The notes under the pieces are model-generated. The model saw only the letters and a program-made list of their open reading frames with translations. It made no database searches and had not been told where the DNA came from. Below, one piece after another: positions 1,357 through 64,000 of a DNA stretch of 64,000 bases. Made by a program: the position numbers and the translations under genes. The first letter of the stretch is position 1, and every line of letters begins with the position of its first letter. Origin of the DNA: a virus (lineage: Duplodnaviria > Caudoviricetes); the IMG/VR virus record IMGVR_UViG_3300033069_001603, positions 1,003-65,002 of that record; one strand, written 5' to 3'.

Positions 1357-2140
1357 TTTTTGGGTCTATGACGATGAAGAATACGACGATGATATGGACG
1401 ATGAATATCGCCCATGTTGTGCCACTGAACCCGAAAAACAAGCATATCTCGAAGTTTTAAAAATCGCCGGATATGTACCCGATGAATTAAAAATCCTTGC
1501 AACTACAATATTGCAAGATCGACATAAACAAGATCTGGTTATAAGGCATTTAAACCATGATTATTTGGAAATTTTATTGCAAAACAATTTAATTAATATG
1601 CAAGTATTGTCAGTTGACTCGATTTTCATGCTTATTGATAACCACGAAGAATATGCATCTGCAGTTTTTGATATATCTAGACAAAGAGCAAAAGACGATG
1701 AAAAATTTTACAAAATATTAAAAGATTATAAAAAAAGAAACATATACGGACAACCGACTAACTTTGCACCTCTTATTATTGCAACAGACGAAGAGCTTGC
1801 CCTTAATATGAAATATGACAGATTATATTTATTTAAAAATAACAAAGCAGTATATGATGCGATACTGAACAAAGAGGTACCAAAATCATATCACTTGTCT
1901 TGTGTTAAATGCATAACTAAAATTGCAATAGAAAGAGACGAGTTGGGTAAATTGATAAATAAATTCGGATCAAAGCTTGCAATTAATGTAATCAAAGAAG
2001 CCAAAAACCGAAATATAAAAATGACAAAAGAACAACTCAAATACATTAAGAAGAATATAATGATTTCGGGTTTGCAAAAAGGCTTATCTAAACAAACTAA
2101 GAAATTAATTGAATATTACGAAAAGGAGATTTTAGATTGA
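1346..2140 (+). CDS. Hypothetical protein, paralog of upstream ORF
   Basis: 264 aa, acidic N-terminus, shared C-terminal segment. Confidence 0.7.
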   Translation: MSANFWVYDDEEYDDDMDDEYRPCCATEPEKQAYLEVLKIAGYVPDELKILATTILQDRHKQDLVIRHLNHDYLEILLQNNLINMQVLSVDSIFMLIDNHEEYASAVFDISRQRAKDDEKFYKILKDYKKRNIYGQPTNFAPLIIATDEELALNMKYDRLYLFKNNKAVYDAILNKEVPKSYHLSCVKCITKIAIERDELGKLINKFGSKLAINVIKEAKNRNIKMTKEQLKYIKKNIMISGLQKGLSKQTKKLIEYYEKEILD

Positions 2141-2523
2141 AACAAAAAACATTCATATACGCAACAATACAAAAAGAAGGATACCACTGTTTCCCTGAAG
2201 CTGCAACTAACTCAGCTTTTGCAACAGGTGACAAATACGATGTGTCTCACCTATCATATAAACATATGCACTACTTTTTTATTAAAGTGTGGGTAGAAGT
2301 AACACACAGCAACAGACAGATAGAATTTATACAATTTAGAAGATGGCTTGAAGATTTATACGGTTCGGGCACATTAGACTTAAATTCTAAAAGCTGCGAA
2401 ATGATTGCTGAAGACCTATACGGCGTAATATCAAAAAAATACCCAAATGTCGAAATAAGAATCGACGTATCAGAAGATAACATAAACGGAGCCCTAGTGG
2501 AATTTAAAGCATCAACTGCTTAA
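2137..2523 (+). CDS. QueD/6-pyruvoyl-tetrahydropterin synthase-like T-fold protein
   Basis: EGYHCF, HMHYF (HxH) and SCEMIAEDL motifs; last codons supplied by IS right end. Confidence 0.6.
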   Translation: MKQKTFIYATIQKEGYHCFPEAATNSAFATGDKYDVSHLSYKHMHYFFIKVWVEVTHSNRQIEFIQFRRWLEDLYGSGTLDLNSKSCEMIAEDLYGVISKKYPNVEIRIDVSEDNINGALVEFKASTA

Positions 2524-2690
2524 CCCTTTAGGGTTAATCTTGCCTGTTCCATTTGTTAAACTATACACTCGCCCTTACAGGCGCAATAGACGATTAAGTT
2601 TTAACTGCTACAAATTTCTTCAAGGCCATTGGGATATCATCGATCCCACTACCCCTGTTGCCTGGGTAGGTACCACCATATAAATCAACT
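2495..2690 (-). ncRNA. TnpB omegaRNA/reRNA scaffold plus flank-derived guide, copy 1 (5' limit approximate)
   Basis: DNA-level conservation with copy 2 over the tnpB 3' end and right end, with compensatory hairpin changes. Confidence 0.7.
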
Positions 2691-3796
2691 AATCCAAAAT
2701 TAAGAATATTAGTAGCTGCATTAATATCTCTATCATGCTCGCTTTTGCAGTTGGGGCAAACCCAACTCCTAATATTTAGTTTTAATTGATCCAATTTAAA
2801 ACTACAGCAACTACACATCTTCGTCGATGGGGCGTACTGCCCAATCTCATAATATGTCTTGCCATATAAATCGCACTTATATTTTACAAGTTGGGTCAGA
2901 AGACCCCAGCTTGCAACACCGATTGCTCGTGATAATTGTCGATTTTTCATTAATCCAGCTACATTTAAATTTTCAAACACAACTGTATCGTAATTACTAA
3001 CTAGGTAATTAGATAATAGATGATAATAATTGCGTTTTTGATTTGTAAGTGTCTCGTATAATTTAGCAACTTTGACTCGTTGCTTCTCGTAATTATTTGA
3101 GCCCCTCTGTTTGCGGGATAAGATCTTTTGTTGCTTTTTTAACAGCTTCGTGTTTTTTGATAGCTGCACATCTGGGTGTTGAAATTTAACTCCATCGCTA
3201 GTAATAATTAAGTCTTTAATACCTAAGTCAACACCTACGTCCTTACCCGTTAAGGGTTTTAGTTGTGCGGTTAATTCAACTAAAACAGAAATAAAATATT
3301 TACCCGAAGGAGTAAGTGATATTGTTGCTGACTTTATCTTACTGCCAGCTGGGATAGGGCGGTGATTGACGTATTTAATGGCGGTATCCAATCTTGGAAT
3401 TTTAATTCCTTCGGATGTAATTTTAATATCCCTAGTACGGAATGATTGACTGTTTGATTTCTTCTTAAATACTGGAATATTTACTTTCTTCCCTTTTCGT
3501 TTACCACTTACGGATTTGAAGAAATTATCATATGCTATACTTAAATCAGCAGATGCATGTTTAAGTACGTGGTCATCTACATTTCTAAGCCAACTAGTAC
3601 CATCTTGTTTCTTTAATTGGGTTATGGCTTTGTTACAATCAAAATTAGATAAGTGAGGTGTTTTGTTTTTGTAATTCTCAAGATTAGCATATAGAAAGTG
3701 ATTATAAACCCAACGTTTTGCGCCAAAGGCGCAACGTAGATATTGCTGTTGTTCCGCAGTTGGGTATAATCGATATTTAAAAGCTATATAATCCAT
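2594..3796 (-). CDS. tnpB: RNA-guided endonuclease TnpB
   Basis: YRLYPT HTH, GVDLG (RuvC-I D), VFENL (RuvC-II E), CSCC/CPNC Zn finger, DRDINAA (RuvC-III D). Confidence 0.95.
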   Translation of the reverse strand: MDYIAFKYRLYPTAEQQQYLRCAFGAKRWVYNHFLYANLENYKNKTPHLSNFDCNKAITQLKKQDGTSWLRNVDDHVLKHASADLSIAYDNFFKSVSGKRKGKKVNIPVFKKKSNSQSFRTRDIKITSEGIKIPRLDTAIKYVNHRPIPAGSKIKSATISLTPSGKYFISVLVELTAQLKPLTGKDVGVDLGIKDLIITSDGVKFQHPDVQLSKNTKLLKKQQKILSRKQRGSNNYEKQRVKVAKLYETLTNQKRNYYHLLSNYLVSNYDTVVFENLNVAGLMKNRQLSRAIGVASWGLLTQLVKYKCDLYGKTYYEIGQYAPSTKMCSCCSFKLDQLKLNIRSWVCPNCKSEHDRDINAATNILNFGLVDLYGGTYPGNRGSGIDDIPMALKKFVAVKT

Positions 3797-3823
3797 ATTC
3801 AGTTATTTATCAATTATTAGATG

Positions 3824-3852
3824 TTGCTTTTTGTTTTGCTTTGCCGTATAAT
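3824..3852 (+). promoter_or_regulatory. Outward-facing sigma70 promoter in IS left end
   Basis: TTGCTT-17-TATAAT, same boxes and spacing in copy 2. Confidence 0.7.
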
Positions 3853-3928
3853 ATGCATCTAAATCACACAAAGGAGGAAGGGCATACCTCCTAACCCTAA
3901 AGGGATTAGGTTACCTTGCCCTGTTTAG

Positions 3929-5017
3929 ATGAAACAAAACATTTGGATTTTTAGTCTTGAGAAATTAGAAACAAGATATACAGCACAGTGGCACAGCCAC
4001 ATACCGGAATTACTTAAAGGTAGATTAACCAATTATAACGTAATTCAAATAGACGGTATACAAAAAAATACAGCAGTAACAGAAGGTGCATTTTTAAATT
4101 TTTCAGATACTAACTATTGGAAAAGTTCGCAACTTTGTAATTTTTTAGAAAGGCATAATGCGGGCGAAACAACTAAAGACGATCATTTTTTATTTACCGA
4201 CGCTTGGAATCCTACAGTCATACAATTACGATACATGTCTGATTTACTTGGCTTTAATTGGAAGTTGCACGGACTTTTTCACGCCGGAAGTTGGGATCCC
4301 TGGGATTTCCTAGGCCGCATAGTAGGCGAAGCAGACTGGGTAACTAACACTGAAAAAGCCCTTTTTCACGCATATGATCATAATTATTTTGCAACTGATT
4401 TTCATATTAATATGTTTATTGAAAACAGATTAAAAATGGAAATCGATACAGCCCGCATGCATTATATGCCGACTAAGAAAATAGTTAGAACTGGCTGGCC
4501 TATGGAATACATAGCAGACACATTAAAAGACTATAATAATTTAAACAAACGTAATTTAATCTTGTTTCCACATAGACTGGCGCCTGAAAAACAAGTAGAA
4601 ATATTTAGGGATCTAGCAAAAGAACTGCCACAGTACGATTGGGTAGTATGCCAGGACCAGACATTAACTAAAGATCAATACCACACACTGTTAGGCGAGT
4701 CGAAGATAGTATTTAGTGCAAGCAAACAAGAAACCCTCGGGATATCTGTGGGATTTGAAGGACCACTTGTTAATTCGTTGCCTCTTGCACCTAATAGATT
4801 ATCATATAGCGAAATATTTGATAGATATCAAGAATTTATGTATCCGGAAGAGTGGACAAGTAGCTGGGATGCGTATGTCGAAAATAAGGAAAAGTTAAAA
4901 AGTAGGATTGTTATGATGATGACTAATTATGAATCCTATATACCCATTTTGAGAAGTTATAATTATTCGGGCATTAGGCAATATGCACATGCAGACGAAT
5001 TAATATCTAATTTTTAA
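3929..5017 (+). CDS. Phage glycosyltransferase (GT-B-like)
   Basis: ILFPHRLAPEKQVEIF and SASKQETLGIS resemble the GT-B C-terminal domain. Confidence 0.7.
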   Translation: MKQNIWIFSLEKLETRYTAQWHSHIPELLKGRLTNYNVIQIDGIQKNTAVTEGAFLNFSDTNYWKSSQLCNFLERHNAGETTKDDHFLFTDAWNPTVIQLRYMSDLLGFNWKLHGLFHAGSWDPWDFLGRIVGEADWVTNTEKALFHAYDHNYFATDFHINMFIENRLKMEIDTARMHYMPTKKIVRTGWPMEYIADTLKDYNNLNKRNLILFPHRLAPEKQVEIFRDLAKELPQYDWVVCQDQTLTKDQYHTLLGESKIVFSASKQETLGISVGFEGPLVNSLPLAPNRLSYSEIFDRYQEFMYPEEWTSSWDAYVENKEKLKSRIVMMMTNYESYIPILRSYNYSGIRQYAHADELISNF

Positions 5018-5259: not shown

Positions 5260-5550
5260 ATGTCTACTCATCTGTATATTTTATCTTGCAATGGCCTTTA
5301 TAAAATCGGTATTACTTCTGATATTAATCGCCGTATCAAAACTTTACAAACTGGCAACCCTTATACTATAACGCTCGAATATATCGAAGAGCGTTATCGT
5401 CCTGAGATGGCCGAAAACTATCTACACAAATGCTTTAAGAAGAATAGGGTATCCGGCGAATGGTTTAAAGATTTAACAATTACACAAATAAGATCTAAGT
5501 TAATGATGTATCATGATCAACTTGACGAATCAGAGACTAGGCGTAAGTAA
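5260..5550 (+). CDS. T5orf172/Mug113 (GIY-YIG-like) domain protein
   Basis: LYIL..YKIGIT....RRIKTLQTGNP...ENYLH..RVSGEWF. Confidence 0.85.
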   Translation: MSTHLYILSCNGLYKIGITSDINRRIKTLQTGNPYTITLEYIEERYRPEMAENYLHKCFKKNRVSGEWFKDLTITQIRSKLMMYHDQLDESETRRK

Positions 5551-36336: not shown

Positions 36337-36619
36337 AATCGAAAAAGAAATGGTTAATTTAAAATTAGCCGGATTTACAAGCGACGAAGAAGACGACCTG
36401 ATGCATTTTGCAATGCTGTATGCCTGTTCAAAGTGTATGTTTGATAATGTCGAACTAAACATAAAGAAAAAGACTGTTTCTTTTGACAATTATATTGTAG
36501 CCTATATAGGTACAGGTTCTTGGTTTGATCGTTATAAACTTCACGATAAAGATAACAGATTCTTACATTCAACTGACAATATTGATACAGTTTTTAAATA
36601 TATATATTGTGGTGGATAG
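36329..36619 (+). CDS. Small LKLK-motif family protein
   Basis: MVNLKLAGF. Confidence 0.6.
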   Translation: MNKIEKEMVNLKLAGFTSDEEDDLMHFAMLYACSKCMFDNVELNIKKKTVSFDNYIVAYIGTGSWFDRYKLHDKDNRFLHSTDNIDTVFKYIYCGG

Positions 36620-36917
36620 CATGGATATGTTCCTAAAATTAAAATACGGAAATATCCTAAGTTCAGATTGCATTGCAGATATGTGTAAATTATTAACCAG
36701 GTTGAAATTAGAAAACATAGAATTTGAATTATCTATGTTTTCTAGCCCTGGGATCGTTATCCCTCAAGTAGTATTAAAAGGCGGCGATGTGTTAATTACC
36801 AACGACCAAGTATCATTATATATTGGCAAAGACAAAGACAACAACAATATAGAAGACGACTATTATTTCGACGAATACGATAGACTAATAATTGACATAA
36901 AAAAGATATTATGTTAA
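36609..36917 (+). CDS. Small LKLK-motif family protein; stop supplied by IS
   Basis: MFLKLKYG; TAA lies in the IS right end. Confidence 0.65.
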   Translation: MVDSMDMFLKLKYGNILSSDCIADMCKLLTRLKLENIEFELSMFSSPGIVIPQVVLKGGDVLITNDQVSLYIGKDKDNNNIEDDYYFDEYDRLIIDIKKILC

Positions 36918-37095
36918 CTACTTGATTCCTTTAGGAATCAAGCTTGCCTGTTCCATTTGTTAAACTATACACTCACCGCATTCGCAGTGCAATAGACTAT
37001 TAAGTTTTAACTACTAACAAATTTCTTCAAGGCCATTGGGATCTCGTTGATCCCACTACCCCTGTTGCCTGGGTAGGTACCGCCATATAAATCAA
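36897..37095 (-). ncRNA. TnpB omegaRNA scaffold plus guide, copy 2 (5' limit approximate)
   Basis: Conserved with copy 1, covarying hairpins. Confidence 0.7.
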
Positions 37096-38203
37096 CCAAT
37101 CCAAAATTAAGAATATTATTAGCCGCATTAATATCTCTATCATGCTCTGCATTGCAGTTGGGGCAAACCCAACTCCTAATATTTAGTTTTAGTTGATCTA
37201 ATTTAAAATTACAGCAACTACACGTCTTCGTTGATGGGGAATATCTCCCAATCTCATGATATGTCTTGCCATATAAATCGCACTTATATTTCACAAGCTG
37301 GGTCAGAAGTCCCCAGCTTGCAACACCGATTGCTCGTGCAATATTTTTATTTTTCATCAAACCCGAAACATTCAAATTTTCAAACACAACTGTGTCATAA
37401 TTACTTACTAGGTAATTACTAATCAAGTGATAATAATTGCGTTTTTGATTTGTTAAAGATTCATATAATTTAGCAACTTTAATCCGTTGCTTCTCGTAAT
37501 TATTGGAACCTTTTTGCTTGCGGGATAAGATCTTTTGTTGTTGCTTTAACAGCTTCGTGTTTTTTGATAGCTGCACATCTGGGTGTTGAAATTTTACTCC
37601 ATCGCTAGTAATAATTAAGTCTTTAATACCTAAGTCAACGCCTACGTCCTTACCCGTTAGGGGTTTTAGTGTAGTTGTTAATTCAACTAAAACAGAAATA
37701 AAATACTTACCCGAAGGAGTAAGTGATATTGTCGCCGACTTTATCTTACTACCTGTTGGGATATTTCTATGTTCTACGAAATCAATAGGTGTATCCAATC
37801 TTGGTATTTTAATTCCGTCGGATGTAATTTTAACATCTCTAGTTCGAAATGATTGACTGTTTGATTTCTTCTTAAAAATTGGTTTATTTAATTTTTTACC
37901 TTTTCGTTTACCACTTACGGACTTGAAGAAATTATTATAAGCCATACCTAGATCAGCAGATGCATTTTTAAGTATACTATCGTCGATATCTGCAAGCCAG
38001 CTAGTGCTATCTTGCTTTTTCAGATCAGTTATTAATAAATTACAATCAAACGCAGAGAGATGTGGTATTTTGTTTTTATAATTTTCAAGATTGACAAATA
38101 GGAAGTAATTATACACCCAACGTTTTGCGCCAAAGGCGCAACGTAGATATTGCTGCTGTTCTGCAGTTGGGTATAATCGATATTTAAAAGACATATAATC
38201 CAT
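37007..38203 (-). CDS. tnpB: RNA-guided endonuclease TnpB
   Basis: All RuvC D-E-D residues and Zn finger present; start set at MDYMSF by analogy to copy 1. Confidence 0.95.
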   Translation of the reverse strand: MDYMSFKYRLYPTAEQQQYLRCAFGAKRWVYNYFLFVNLENYKNKIPHLSAFDCNLLITDLKKQDSTSWLADIDDSILKNASADLGMAYNNFFKSVSGKRKGKKLNKPIFKKKSNSQSFRTRDVKITSDGIKIPRLDTPIDFVEHRNIPTGSKIKSATISLTPSGKYFISVLVELTTTLKPLTGKDVGVDLGIKDLIITSDGVKFQHPDVQLSKNTKLLKQQQKILSRKQKGSNNYEKQRIKVAKLYESLTNQKRNYYHLISNYLVSNYDTVVFENLNVSGLMKNKNIARAIGVASWGLLTQLVKYKCDLYGKTYHEIGRYSPSTKTCSCCNFKLDQLKLNIRSWVCPNCNAEHDRDINAANNILNFGLVDLYGGTYPGNRGSGINEIPMALKKFVSS

Positions 38204-38228
38204 AATTTTATTTATCAATTATTATATA

Positions 38229-38257
38229 TTGCTTTGTTTTTTGTTTTGCCGTATAAT
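38229..38257 (+). promoter_or_regulatory. Outward-facing sigma70 promoter in IS left end
   Basis: TTGCTT-17-TATAAT. Confidence 0.7.
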
Positions 38258-38332
38258 ATGCATCTAAATCATACAAAGGAGGAAGGGCATACCCCTAACC
38301 CTAAAGGGATTAGGTTTCCTTGCCCTGTTTTG

Positions 38333-38662
38333 ATGAACAACAATAAAAAAACAATGATGTTACGTTTATTATATACATCTAAAATTCTACCAGATAGTGC
38401 CCTATCTAAATTTGCATCTGTTTTAGAAGAGCTTGAAAAACAAGGAATCGATTTCGAACTCACTACACACGTAAATAAAAGTCCTATTATCTTATTAAAG
38501 GGTTGCGACATAATTATGTTTACTTCATCTAGGGGCGAAAATATCTTTTGTTTTCACGTAGGAGAAAATTACAATAATAATAAATATGTATCTGATATAA
38601 ATATTAACAACCTAACCGACGACATCAAAAAAATCAAGTTGGAATTTTTAGATGAAAAATAA
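38333..38662 (+). CDS. Small LKLK-motif family protein
   Basis: MNNNKKTMMLRLLY; true start at IS boundary. Confidence 0.65.
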   Translation: MNNNKKTMMLRLLYTSKILPDSALSKFASVLEELEKQGIDFELTTHVNKSPIILLKGCDIIMFTSSRGENIFCFHVGENYNNNKYVSDININNLTDDIKKIKLEFLDEK

Positions 38663-63626: not shown

Positions 63627-63677
63627 TGAATATTCCCAACATTAGAATGTAATGTTTTAGTGTTGGGAAGTTATTAT

Positions 63678-63714
63678 GGTCCTTTAGCTCAGCAGGATAG
63701 AGCAGTCGACTCAT
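63678..63714 (+). tRNA. tRNA-Ile2/Met(CAT), 5' exon
   Basis: GGTCCTTTAGCTCAGCAGGATAGAGCAGTCGACTCAT resembles ileX; 3' exon beyond window. Confidence 0.8.
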
Positions 63715-64000
63715 GAATTTTGTGACCTTCAATAGTAATATTGATTGAATAACCGGATTAATTTAGTGAAACCTCTGTTACATTTGTAACGTGGCAATAC
63801 TAAGCCAAGCCTATTATGCGTAATAGGAAGGTTCAGAGACTAGGTGGTTTGGCACGAACATGCCATATAATACACCGTTAACGTCCGGCGCGGATGCTTG
63901 GCGAGAGGATGGCTAGTTGCCGTATAACCGTAGCTGTAAACGGTTGCGAAGCAATCCGACGAACGAAGTGAGTGTATTTAACAGCGTTGTTATACGCTAA
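63715..64000 (+). ncRNA. Group I intron in tRNA(CAT), truncated by window end
   Basis: P1 TCAT/GTGA with U.G, P2 GTAA loop, P3 CCGGAT/GTCCGG, AATACTAAGCCAAG, GTTCAGAGACTA. Confidence 0.85.

Follow-up and report, generated by a model that had tools for sequence, protein, structure and literature searches.

A 64-kb stretch of virus DNA (the window), which makes up most of a 65-kb IMG/VR virus record (IMGVR_UViG_3300033069_001603) judged 42% complete, carries two copies of a tnpB-only element of the IS200/IS605 type, and the record as a whole holds only these two. Each copy lies antisense to the phage genes on either side of it and ends directly against the start codon of the gene downstream. 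The carrier is assigned to the T4-like, RIIA-encoding phages because the window contains a RIIA homologue, three tRNAs, two group I introns and densely packed small genes; no close DNA relative was found among isolated phages. Copies 1 and 2 are referred to below as W1 and W2, and L-numbers denote loci on other contigs. The features at the two sites are as follows, TAM standing for target-adjacent motif.

2137..2523, plus strand: upstream gene at copy 1, 128 aa, phrog_17812; the right end of the element supplies its final 3 codons and stop (2511-2523)
2491..2510, minus strand: predicted guide-matching flank of copy 1, GCTTTAAATTCC... on the tnpB strand, a role presumed from IS605 biology
2511..3928, minus strand: element copy 1 (W1), 1418 nt, tnpB-only IS200/IS605-type; span from the two-copy alignment, right terminus as in the clade consensus
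2511..2710, minus strand: predicted omegaRNA scaffold region and right end of copy 1, from alignment and RNAalifold; hairpin at 2520-2537, then AGTTGAT
2511-2517: AGTTGAT terminus of copy 1, where the plus strand reads ATCAACT
2594..3796, minus strand: tnpB of copy 1, 400 aa, with its Pfam domains; RuvC D189/E275/D and CxxC...CxxC intact
3797..3928, minus strand: left end of copy 1; inner hairpin at 3890-3910, outer stem of 3879-3884 with 3917-3922
within 3797..3928, read on the plus strand: left-end signals of copy 1, AAGGAGG at 3871-3877 and an outward TTGCTT-17-TATAAT; same layout in L311
3929..3933, plus strand: ATGAA, containing the ATG that starts the 362-aa downstream gene; presumed TAM, read as TTCAT on the tnpB strand
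3929..5017, plus strand: downstream gene at copy 1, 362 aa; relatives of 50-60% identity keep it in synteny with the upstream gene
36525..36917, plus strand: upstream gene at copy 2, now ending ...IKKILC*, with its stop inside the right end
36893..36912, minus strand: predicted guide-matching flank of copy 2, ATAATATCTTTTTTAT...
36913..38332, minus strand: element copy 2 (W2), 1420 nt
36913..37112, minus strand: predicted omegaRNA scaffold region and right end of copy 2; hairpin at 36921-36942, terminus AGTTAAC
37007..38203, minus strand: tnpB of copy 2, 398 aa from the homologous ATG, catalytic motifs intact
38333..38337, plus strand: ATGAA, containing the ATG that starts the 109-aa downstream gene; the presumed TAM at this copy
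38333..38662, plus strand: downstream gene at copy 2, from a tandem family of small paralogues, junction overlaps 11 nt

The two TnpB proteins are 86% identical and match PF12323 (HTH_OrfB_IS605), PF01385 (OrfB_IS605) and PF07282 (Cas12f1-like TNB), all above cut-offs. GVDLG, FENLN, HDRD, CSCC and CPNC are kept in both, which preserves the RuvC D/E/D residues and the zinc finger. Neither terminal inverted repeats nor a target duplication is present in either element. A Y1 transposase (PF01797) gave no match in the 65-kb record, and only 132 nt separate the left end from tnpB in copy 1. Because every testable feature of an IS200/IS605 TnpB-omegaRNA element was found except tnpA, W1 and W2 are classified as non-autonomous, tnpB-only members of the family. 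Such tnpB-only derivatives are a recognised form of IS200/IS605 elements.

The limits of the copies are set by two independent comparisons. The alignment of W1 with W2 runs on the tnpB strand from C[T/A]AAACAGGGCAAGG, straight after TTCAT, to ...GGAACAGGCAAG, the hairpin and AAG[C/T]AGTT. Searches of 1.8 billion clusters returned 23,589 representative TnpB homologues, the nearest of which are 47–50% identical and are found, antisense to small genes, in phage-like surroundings. Scanning viral contigs by alignment added about 37 loci at 44–52% identity. The resulting clade comprises about 40 phage-borne elements whose ends are defined, most copies again lying antisense between phage genes. The clade forms its own group, at most 50% identical to other representatives, in which W1 and W2 are sisters grouped with L025, L026 and L022; a further copy family (L311) has a TnpB 64% identical. 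In 23 distinct elements the right end consists of GGCAAG, a hairpin and AGTTGA[C/T], after which similarity ends, and this consensus maps to exactly 2511 and 36913, the W2 terminus AGTTAAC departing from it by one base. The left end consists of the TAM, 14–22 nt and a hairpin, the hairpin standing 17–18 nt from the boundary in the window copies.

The last 200 nt of the same 23 elements share a common fold of 45 pairs, 31 of which show compensatory changes (RNAalifold), and one stem is extended in W1 and W2 with compensatory changes of its own. This structured RNA, which overlaps the 3′ end of tnpB and finishes at the right end, is the predicted omegaRNA scaffold. The terminal hairpin of a third copy from the same phage, described below, combines the left arm of W2 with a right arm close to the one in W1. 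Its arms can pair only by means of G-U wobbles on the tnpB-sense strand, which points to selection acting on the RNA.

Rearranged forms of the ends also occur in the clade. Two tandem right-end modules (hairpin and AGTTGAC), 49 nt apart, stand at the end of one element (L026:4140-4262). A tnpB-less mini-derivative of ~240 nt (L134:2178-2416) joins an internal left-end piece to an omegaRNA/right-end part ending in AGTTGAC; it precedes a conserved phage gene and is oriented opposite to the full element in the same spacer of L135. L136 has neither the mini-derivative nor the full element, giving three alleles in phages that are 95–97% identical.

TTCAT lies directly 5′ of the left end in both window copies, so that the plus strand reads ATGAA at 3929 and 38333. 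The pentanucleotide recurs 17–19 nt 5′ of the left-end hairpin in W1, W2, L311, L022, L025/28 and L026, while L054 has GTCAT, most of the large sister subclade has TTTAT and single cases have TATAT, GTTAT or ATTAT; these motif groups follow the TnpB tree. TTCAT is assigned to the flank rather than to the element because the downstream gene needs its start codon and because the sister elements agree. Experiments on Geobacillus IS605-family elements have established both TTCAT and TTTAT as TAMs (10.1101/2023.03.14.532601). For the present elements TTCAT is the strongest TAM candidate, as we infer with good support from these comparisons. In the occupied alleles the guide match is preceded by TTGAT (copy 1) or TTAAC (copy 2) and not by TTCAT, which would correspond to the usual self-sparing of such elements, and no second TTCAT with a guide match was found elsewhere in the window.

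Avoidance of TTCAT by the phage was considered as a separate signal and rejected. ATGAA/TTCAT is the most depleted 5-mer in the window under a dinucleotide model (140 observed against 264 +/- 16 expected), but falls to rank 10 under an order-3 model (ratio 0.80, z -2.6), and AATGA, ATTGA, TGAAT and CATGA are almost as low, indicating a general deficit of words containing TGA or TCA. The L044/L075 locus was likewise rejected as a TTCAT insertion: set beside L136, L134 and the left ends of sister elements, its true limit falls between TATAT and CAG, and instead of a clean insertion it shows replacement of about 100 nt of ancestral spacer. Among the TTTAT-type sister elements L024, L033, L038 and L039, the complement ATAAA often includes the TAA stop of the upstream gene. 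Once their empty sites are reconstructed, that stop ends 4 or 8 nt beyond the junction, and the insertions lie 7–50 nt upstream of the next start codon.

Excision of the elements in silico recovers compact gene junctions. Removal of 2511-3928 leaves ...GAATTTAAAGC followed directly by ATGAAAC, so that the upstream gene ends VEFKA* with an ATGA overlap. Removal of 36913-38332 joins ...GATATTAT to ATGAACAACAATAA, with IKKILYEQQ* overlapping the MNNNKK start by 14 nt, an arrangement resembling the 11-nt overlaps at junctions of the neighbouring paralogues. A natural counterpart is provided by the sister element L054/L214, for which two relatives (L216 and L217), with flanks 84–93% identical, are empty. 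Their uninterrupted sequence reads ...GATTAGGAGTTCCAA followed directly by ATGACCAAT..., the junction also being given as ...TAGGAGTTCCAA followed by ATGACC..., and L214 carries a 1423-nt element exactly at this junction with no duplication and no loss. On the guide side, 32 nt of L214 and L216 are identical and L217 differs by one base, and both empty alleles carry the TAM; the complement of the ATG at this insertion forms the last three bases of the motif. The comparison confirms the end definitions, insertion directly 5′ of an ATG and the existence of natural guide targets. An earlier interpretation made from the window's letters before any search (the sequence-only reading) had proposed a TnpB element in two copies with these limits, TTCAT at their 5′ flank on the tnpB strand and overlapping junctions on their removal. 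The element type is borne out by the Pfam domains and catalytic motifs, both limits are exact to the base with right ends at the clade-wide terminus, and the flanking motif and restored junctions were reproduced for both copies. Its proposed check, to look for related genomes with empty sites, was answered by L216 and L217 for the sister element and not for the window sites.

These observations are probably best explained if W1 and W2 are diverged, tnpB-only members of a phage-borne lineage of IS200/IS605 elements, and their placement at start codons reflects the target motif combined with selection. An element of this kind would arrive by single-strand 'peel and paste' insertion 3′ of TTCAT, with a Y1 transposase presumably supplied in trans, because sister elements in other phages still carry tnpA: the gene is identified in L024 (Pfam Y1_Tnp) and deduced from spacing for L029-L033 and L047. 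TTCAT would double as the TAM of TnpB, and the guide would be formed from the 16–20 nt beyond the right end, an antisense reading of the upstream gene's final codons. Surviving copies would be mostly those antisense and directly 5′ of an ATG-AAx start, where both neighbouring reading frames stay whole. The elements have been retained over a long period under selection on both protein and RNA, and the likeliest reason would be that TnpB and its omegaRNA cut empty alleles carrying TTCAT and the guide match, whereupon recombination copies the element in.

Several points weigh against this account. An exact junction search of viral contigs gave no empty allele of either window site, and identity to the flanking genes does not exceed 60% among relatives in the viral and metagenome collections, most of which have an extra small gene at site 1. 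The same phage (98.9–100% identity) recurs in at least 8 samples, always in the occupied form or with a contig break inside the element, where its contigs often break. Data sets containing it are SRR32380195, SRR32380198, SRR32380203, SRR8942303, SRR31616073 and JGI 3300020576, 3300020577 and 3300033066. Because their own empty alleles were not found, the insertion events at the window sites are reconstructed and not seen; searches for empty alleles of L025 and L022 likewise gave only occupied contigs or nothing. The identification of the TAM is a matter of comparison, two copies alone cannot settle whether TTCAT belongs to flank or element, and several left-end limits in the clade were set partly by searching for TTYAT. 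With an estimated 42% of the genome in the record, a tnpA may lie in the remainder.

The copy-1 junction is a variable spot across this phage group. Relatives L003-L021 and L105-L133 mostly have a gene of ~70 codons (MANPNW.../MAKPEW...) between the homologues of the copy-1 flanking genes; in three relatives these homologues overlap by 11–13 nt, and in others 850–1130 nt are inserted. At 5260-5550 (+), 250 nt beyond the gene downstream of copy 1, lies a 96-aa gene with T5orf172/MUG113 domains. This is the fold of putative homing-type nucleases, and the gene may represent a second kind of selfish gene nearby.

The association with start codons is measurable, and a third copy shows its limits. 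Outside the elements the window contains 137 TTCAT/ATGAA sites, comprising 20 called start codons, 12 intergenic sites and 105 within genes, so about 77% are in genes, and the finding of both window copies at start codons has p about 0.02 if sites are random. Across the clade, 8 independent [T/G]TCAT-type insertions could be scored, the ambiguous L045 and L041 being left out. The CAT of the motif is the start codon of an antisense gene in five of the eight (W1, W2, L311 with a called 67-aa gene, L022 and L054) and possibly in a sixth (L026, where the gene resembles a serine recombinase tail), with p about 0.003 if sites are random. In L025 the ATG opens only 10 codons and is not a gene start. 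The remaining insertion is copy 3 of the same phage (L310:2760-4445), found through a TnpB 88% identical to that of W1 on contig Ga0364482_11578, which also holds copy 1; it lies about 14.5 kb left of the window start. Its open reading frame is full length and its right end intact, and it sits mid-gene, in sense orientation, within a DUF3307 gene. The fragment upstream of it covers model positions 1–53 of 127, and the frame resumes as (D)YHIDYLKMN... right after the AGTTGAC terminus; this short downstream piece has no DUF3307 Pfam match and was placed by alignment with full-length homologues. The first ~63 nt of the left end and about 17–20 codons of the DUF3307 gene are deleted. The lost TAM is irrecoverable because two DUF3307 homologues have, at the corresponding position, TTA CAT and GCG CAC.

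Of the TTCAT sites at which an insertion would not be disruptive, 20/32 (0.63) are start codons. Since the observed 5/8 matches this fraction, the excess at start codons is explained by the persistence of non-disruptive insertions, and the pattern is accounted for by the TTCAT motif and purifying selection without extra targeting. The sequence-only reading had the element landing exactly at coupled gene starts. This describes W1 and W2 and survives as a bias in the clade, but copy 3 and L025 depart from it; a mid-gene copy, which that reading would have counted against itself if accompanied by no start-codon preference, is thus present alongside a preference that persists.

Repair of the upstream gene by the right end, also part of the sequence-only reading, fares less well. 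The occupied upstream genes do end in ...ASTA* (W1) and ...LC* (W2) as it described, with stops at +13 nt and +5 nt. Across the clade, however, the right end supplies an in-frame stop 1–98 nt in, in any frame, commonly at about 20 nt owing to a TAA on the opposite strand of the hairpin loop CTTTAG, and stop repair is no better than chance. One suggestive detail is that the TAA in W2 is made by its single departure from the AGTTGAC consensus. Nor can insertion be called nearly neutral, as had been proposed, since the L054/L214 insertion cuts the Shine-Dalgarno TAGGAG from its ATG and the L022 insertion likewise cuts AAGGAG.

Loss of a native Shine-Dalgarno would place compensation under selection, and the left end contains candidate signals for it. 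The lineage may thus have become adapted to start codons, its left end re-expressing the captured gene and its right end supplying the upstream stop, although we regard this as doubtful. On the phage-sense strand of W1, W2 and L311 (3824-3931 and 38230-38335 of the window; L311:2897-3000), at three different sites, a sigma-70-like promoter is followed by AAGGAGG(A), a compensated outer stem, 6 nt and the ATG, so arranged that a stem-loop would bring the Shine-Dalgarno to 6 nt from the captured start codon. The outward promoter reads TTGCTT-17-TATAAT in W1 and W2 and TTGACA-17-TATAAT in L311, and L025, L034, L045 and L083 have an outward TTGACA-17-TATAAT or TATACT. The minimum-energy fold of W1 leaves the Shine-Dalgarno free beside the stem, but that of W2 sequesters it, and GGAGG is able to pair with a nearby CCTCC on either strand. 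L022, L025 and L054 have no such Shine-Dalgarno, and the outward promoter may be a relic of a lost tnpA unit. The stop created by the lone right-end departure in W2 can be counted in favour of adaptation, whereas right-end stops as a class come no earlier than chance, and copy 3 and L025 are not at start codons at all. Left-end compensation looks more real than right-end stop repair.

W1 and W2 differ by dS 0.48 with dN/dS 0.18, values that indicate old copies and a protein under purifying selection. One explanation for such retention is that homing is the main route of spread and persistence, TnpB and its omegaRNA cutting the empty allele during mixed infection and recombination copying the element across. 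We hold this to be possible, if short of probable. The nuclease motifs are intact, the omegaRNA is conserved, the purifying selection is long-term and tnpA is lacking from the 65-kb record; the empty alleles L216 and L217 carry the TAM with guide-side matches of 32/32 and 31/32. TnpA-independent, TnpB-driven spread has been shown for plasmids and proposed for phages in the literature. Both window insertions are fixed in every sample of the same phage, but fixation is equally explained by descent. The tnpA-bearing sisters in the phage gene pool make trans-mobilisation an alternative, and W1 and W2 are each other's closest relatives, which suggests old transposition within the lineage rather than two imports. 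Homing into the empty alleles of co-infecting phages fits the data as a prediction.

The purifying selection and the lack of tnpA in the record could also be read as signs of domestication, with TnpB serving the phage as an RNA-guided regulator or as a weapon against competitors, and phage-encoded TnpB derivatives with regulatory roles are known. TldR, a nuclease-dead regulator, is likewise a phage-borne TnpB homologue with a guide RNA; it has lost the RuvC catalytic residues, and its guide is aimed at a promoter and not at the flank of its own element. In W1 and W2, however, the RuvC catalytic residues are intact, unlike in TldR, and the ends, TAM adjacency and flank-derived guide follow the standard transposon layout. 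With the guide region being the flank itself and no other TTCAT and guide match in the window, domestication of the TldR type was excluded, and domestication in any form is highly unlikely. At the other extreme, the copies might be inert relics, dead insertions merely tolerated by the phage, as the missing tnpA, the lost left end of copy 3 and the uniformity across at least 8 samples might suggest. This is extremely unlikely given dN/dS 0.18 over dS 0.48, three full-length open reading frames, and RNA stems kept by compensatory changes, including among W1, W2 and copy 3.

Under the favoured account, with W1 and W2 as diverged members of an IS200/IS605 lineage, the closest known systems are ISDra2, ISGst2 and ISGst5. 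These share the domain set, catalytic residues and subterminal hairpins, insertion 3′ of a pentanucleotide without target duplication, and a structured RNA that begins at the 3′ end of tnpB, extends to the right end and draws its guide from the flank. The Geobacillus elements also share the TTCAT/TTTAT motifs, with TTTAT the TAM of ISGst2 and TTCAT that of ISGst5 (10.1101/2023.03.14.532601); the TTCAT of ISGst5, however, belongs to an IscB element and not to TnpB. The window copies differ from ISDra2 and the Geobacillus elements in lacking tnpA, in residing in lytic-type T4-like phages and in forming their own clade. Group I introns occur in the same window, which invites comparison with IStrons, IS605-type elements that lessen the harm of insertion. 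An IStron is a group I intron fused to the 5′ part of an IS605-type element and lies in sense with the host gene. Rfam places the introns at 16218-16509 (-) and 63647-63893 (+), with 85 and 53 bits, and the three tRNAs at 15221-15891 (-). No intron adjoins W1 or W2, and because the elements are antisense to the flanking genes, splicing cannot restore the message; an IStron architecture was excluded.

A further parallel is with the seg and mob homing endonucleases of T-even phages, which are also selfish nuclease genes wedged between conserved phage genes and vary in presence between related phages, as L214 does against L216 and L217. They spread during co-infection by cutting the empty allele, behaviour that for TnpB elements is expected only. 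The target of TnpB would be read by RNA and a 5-nt motif instead of by protein, and the element has transposon ends. It is conceivable, though rather unlikely, that the lineage as a whole is specialised for gene punctuation, combining a TAM complementary to start or stop codons, restart of expression from the left end and RNA-guided homing in the manner of seg and mob.

The kind of element, the TAM and the general homing model are known already, and if neither homing between phages nor confinement by the motif holds, this is an ordinary, well-documented IS605-type insertion. Modestly new are a clade confined to phages, the way its members sit antisense at gene boundaries with the motif taking in the start codon, and the possible expression signals of the left end. 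TnpB genes are common in phages (424 of 50,697 phage isolate records match TnpB), and their roles there are hardly studied. The natural pair of occupied and empty alleles described here, in which the empty form is on paper a perfect TnpB target, makes two ideas testable: that RNA-guided homing, so far only proposed, takes place between co-infecting phages, and that a target motif can confine the surviving copies of an element to gene boundaries.

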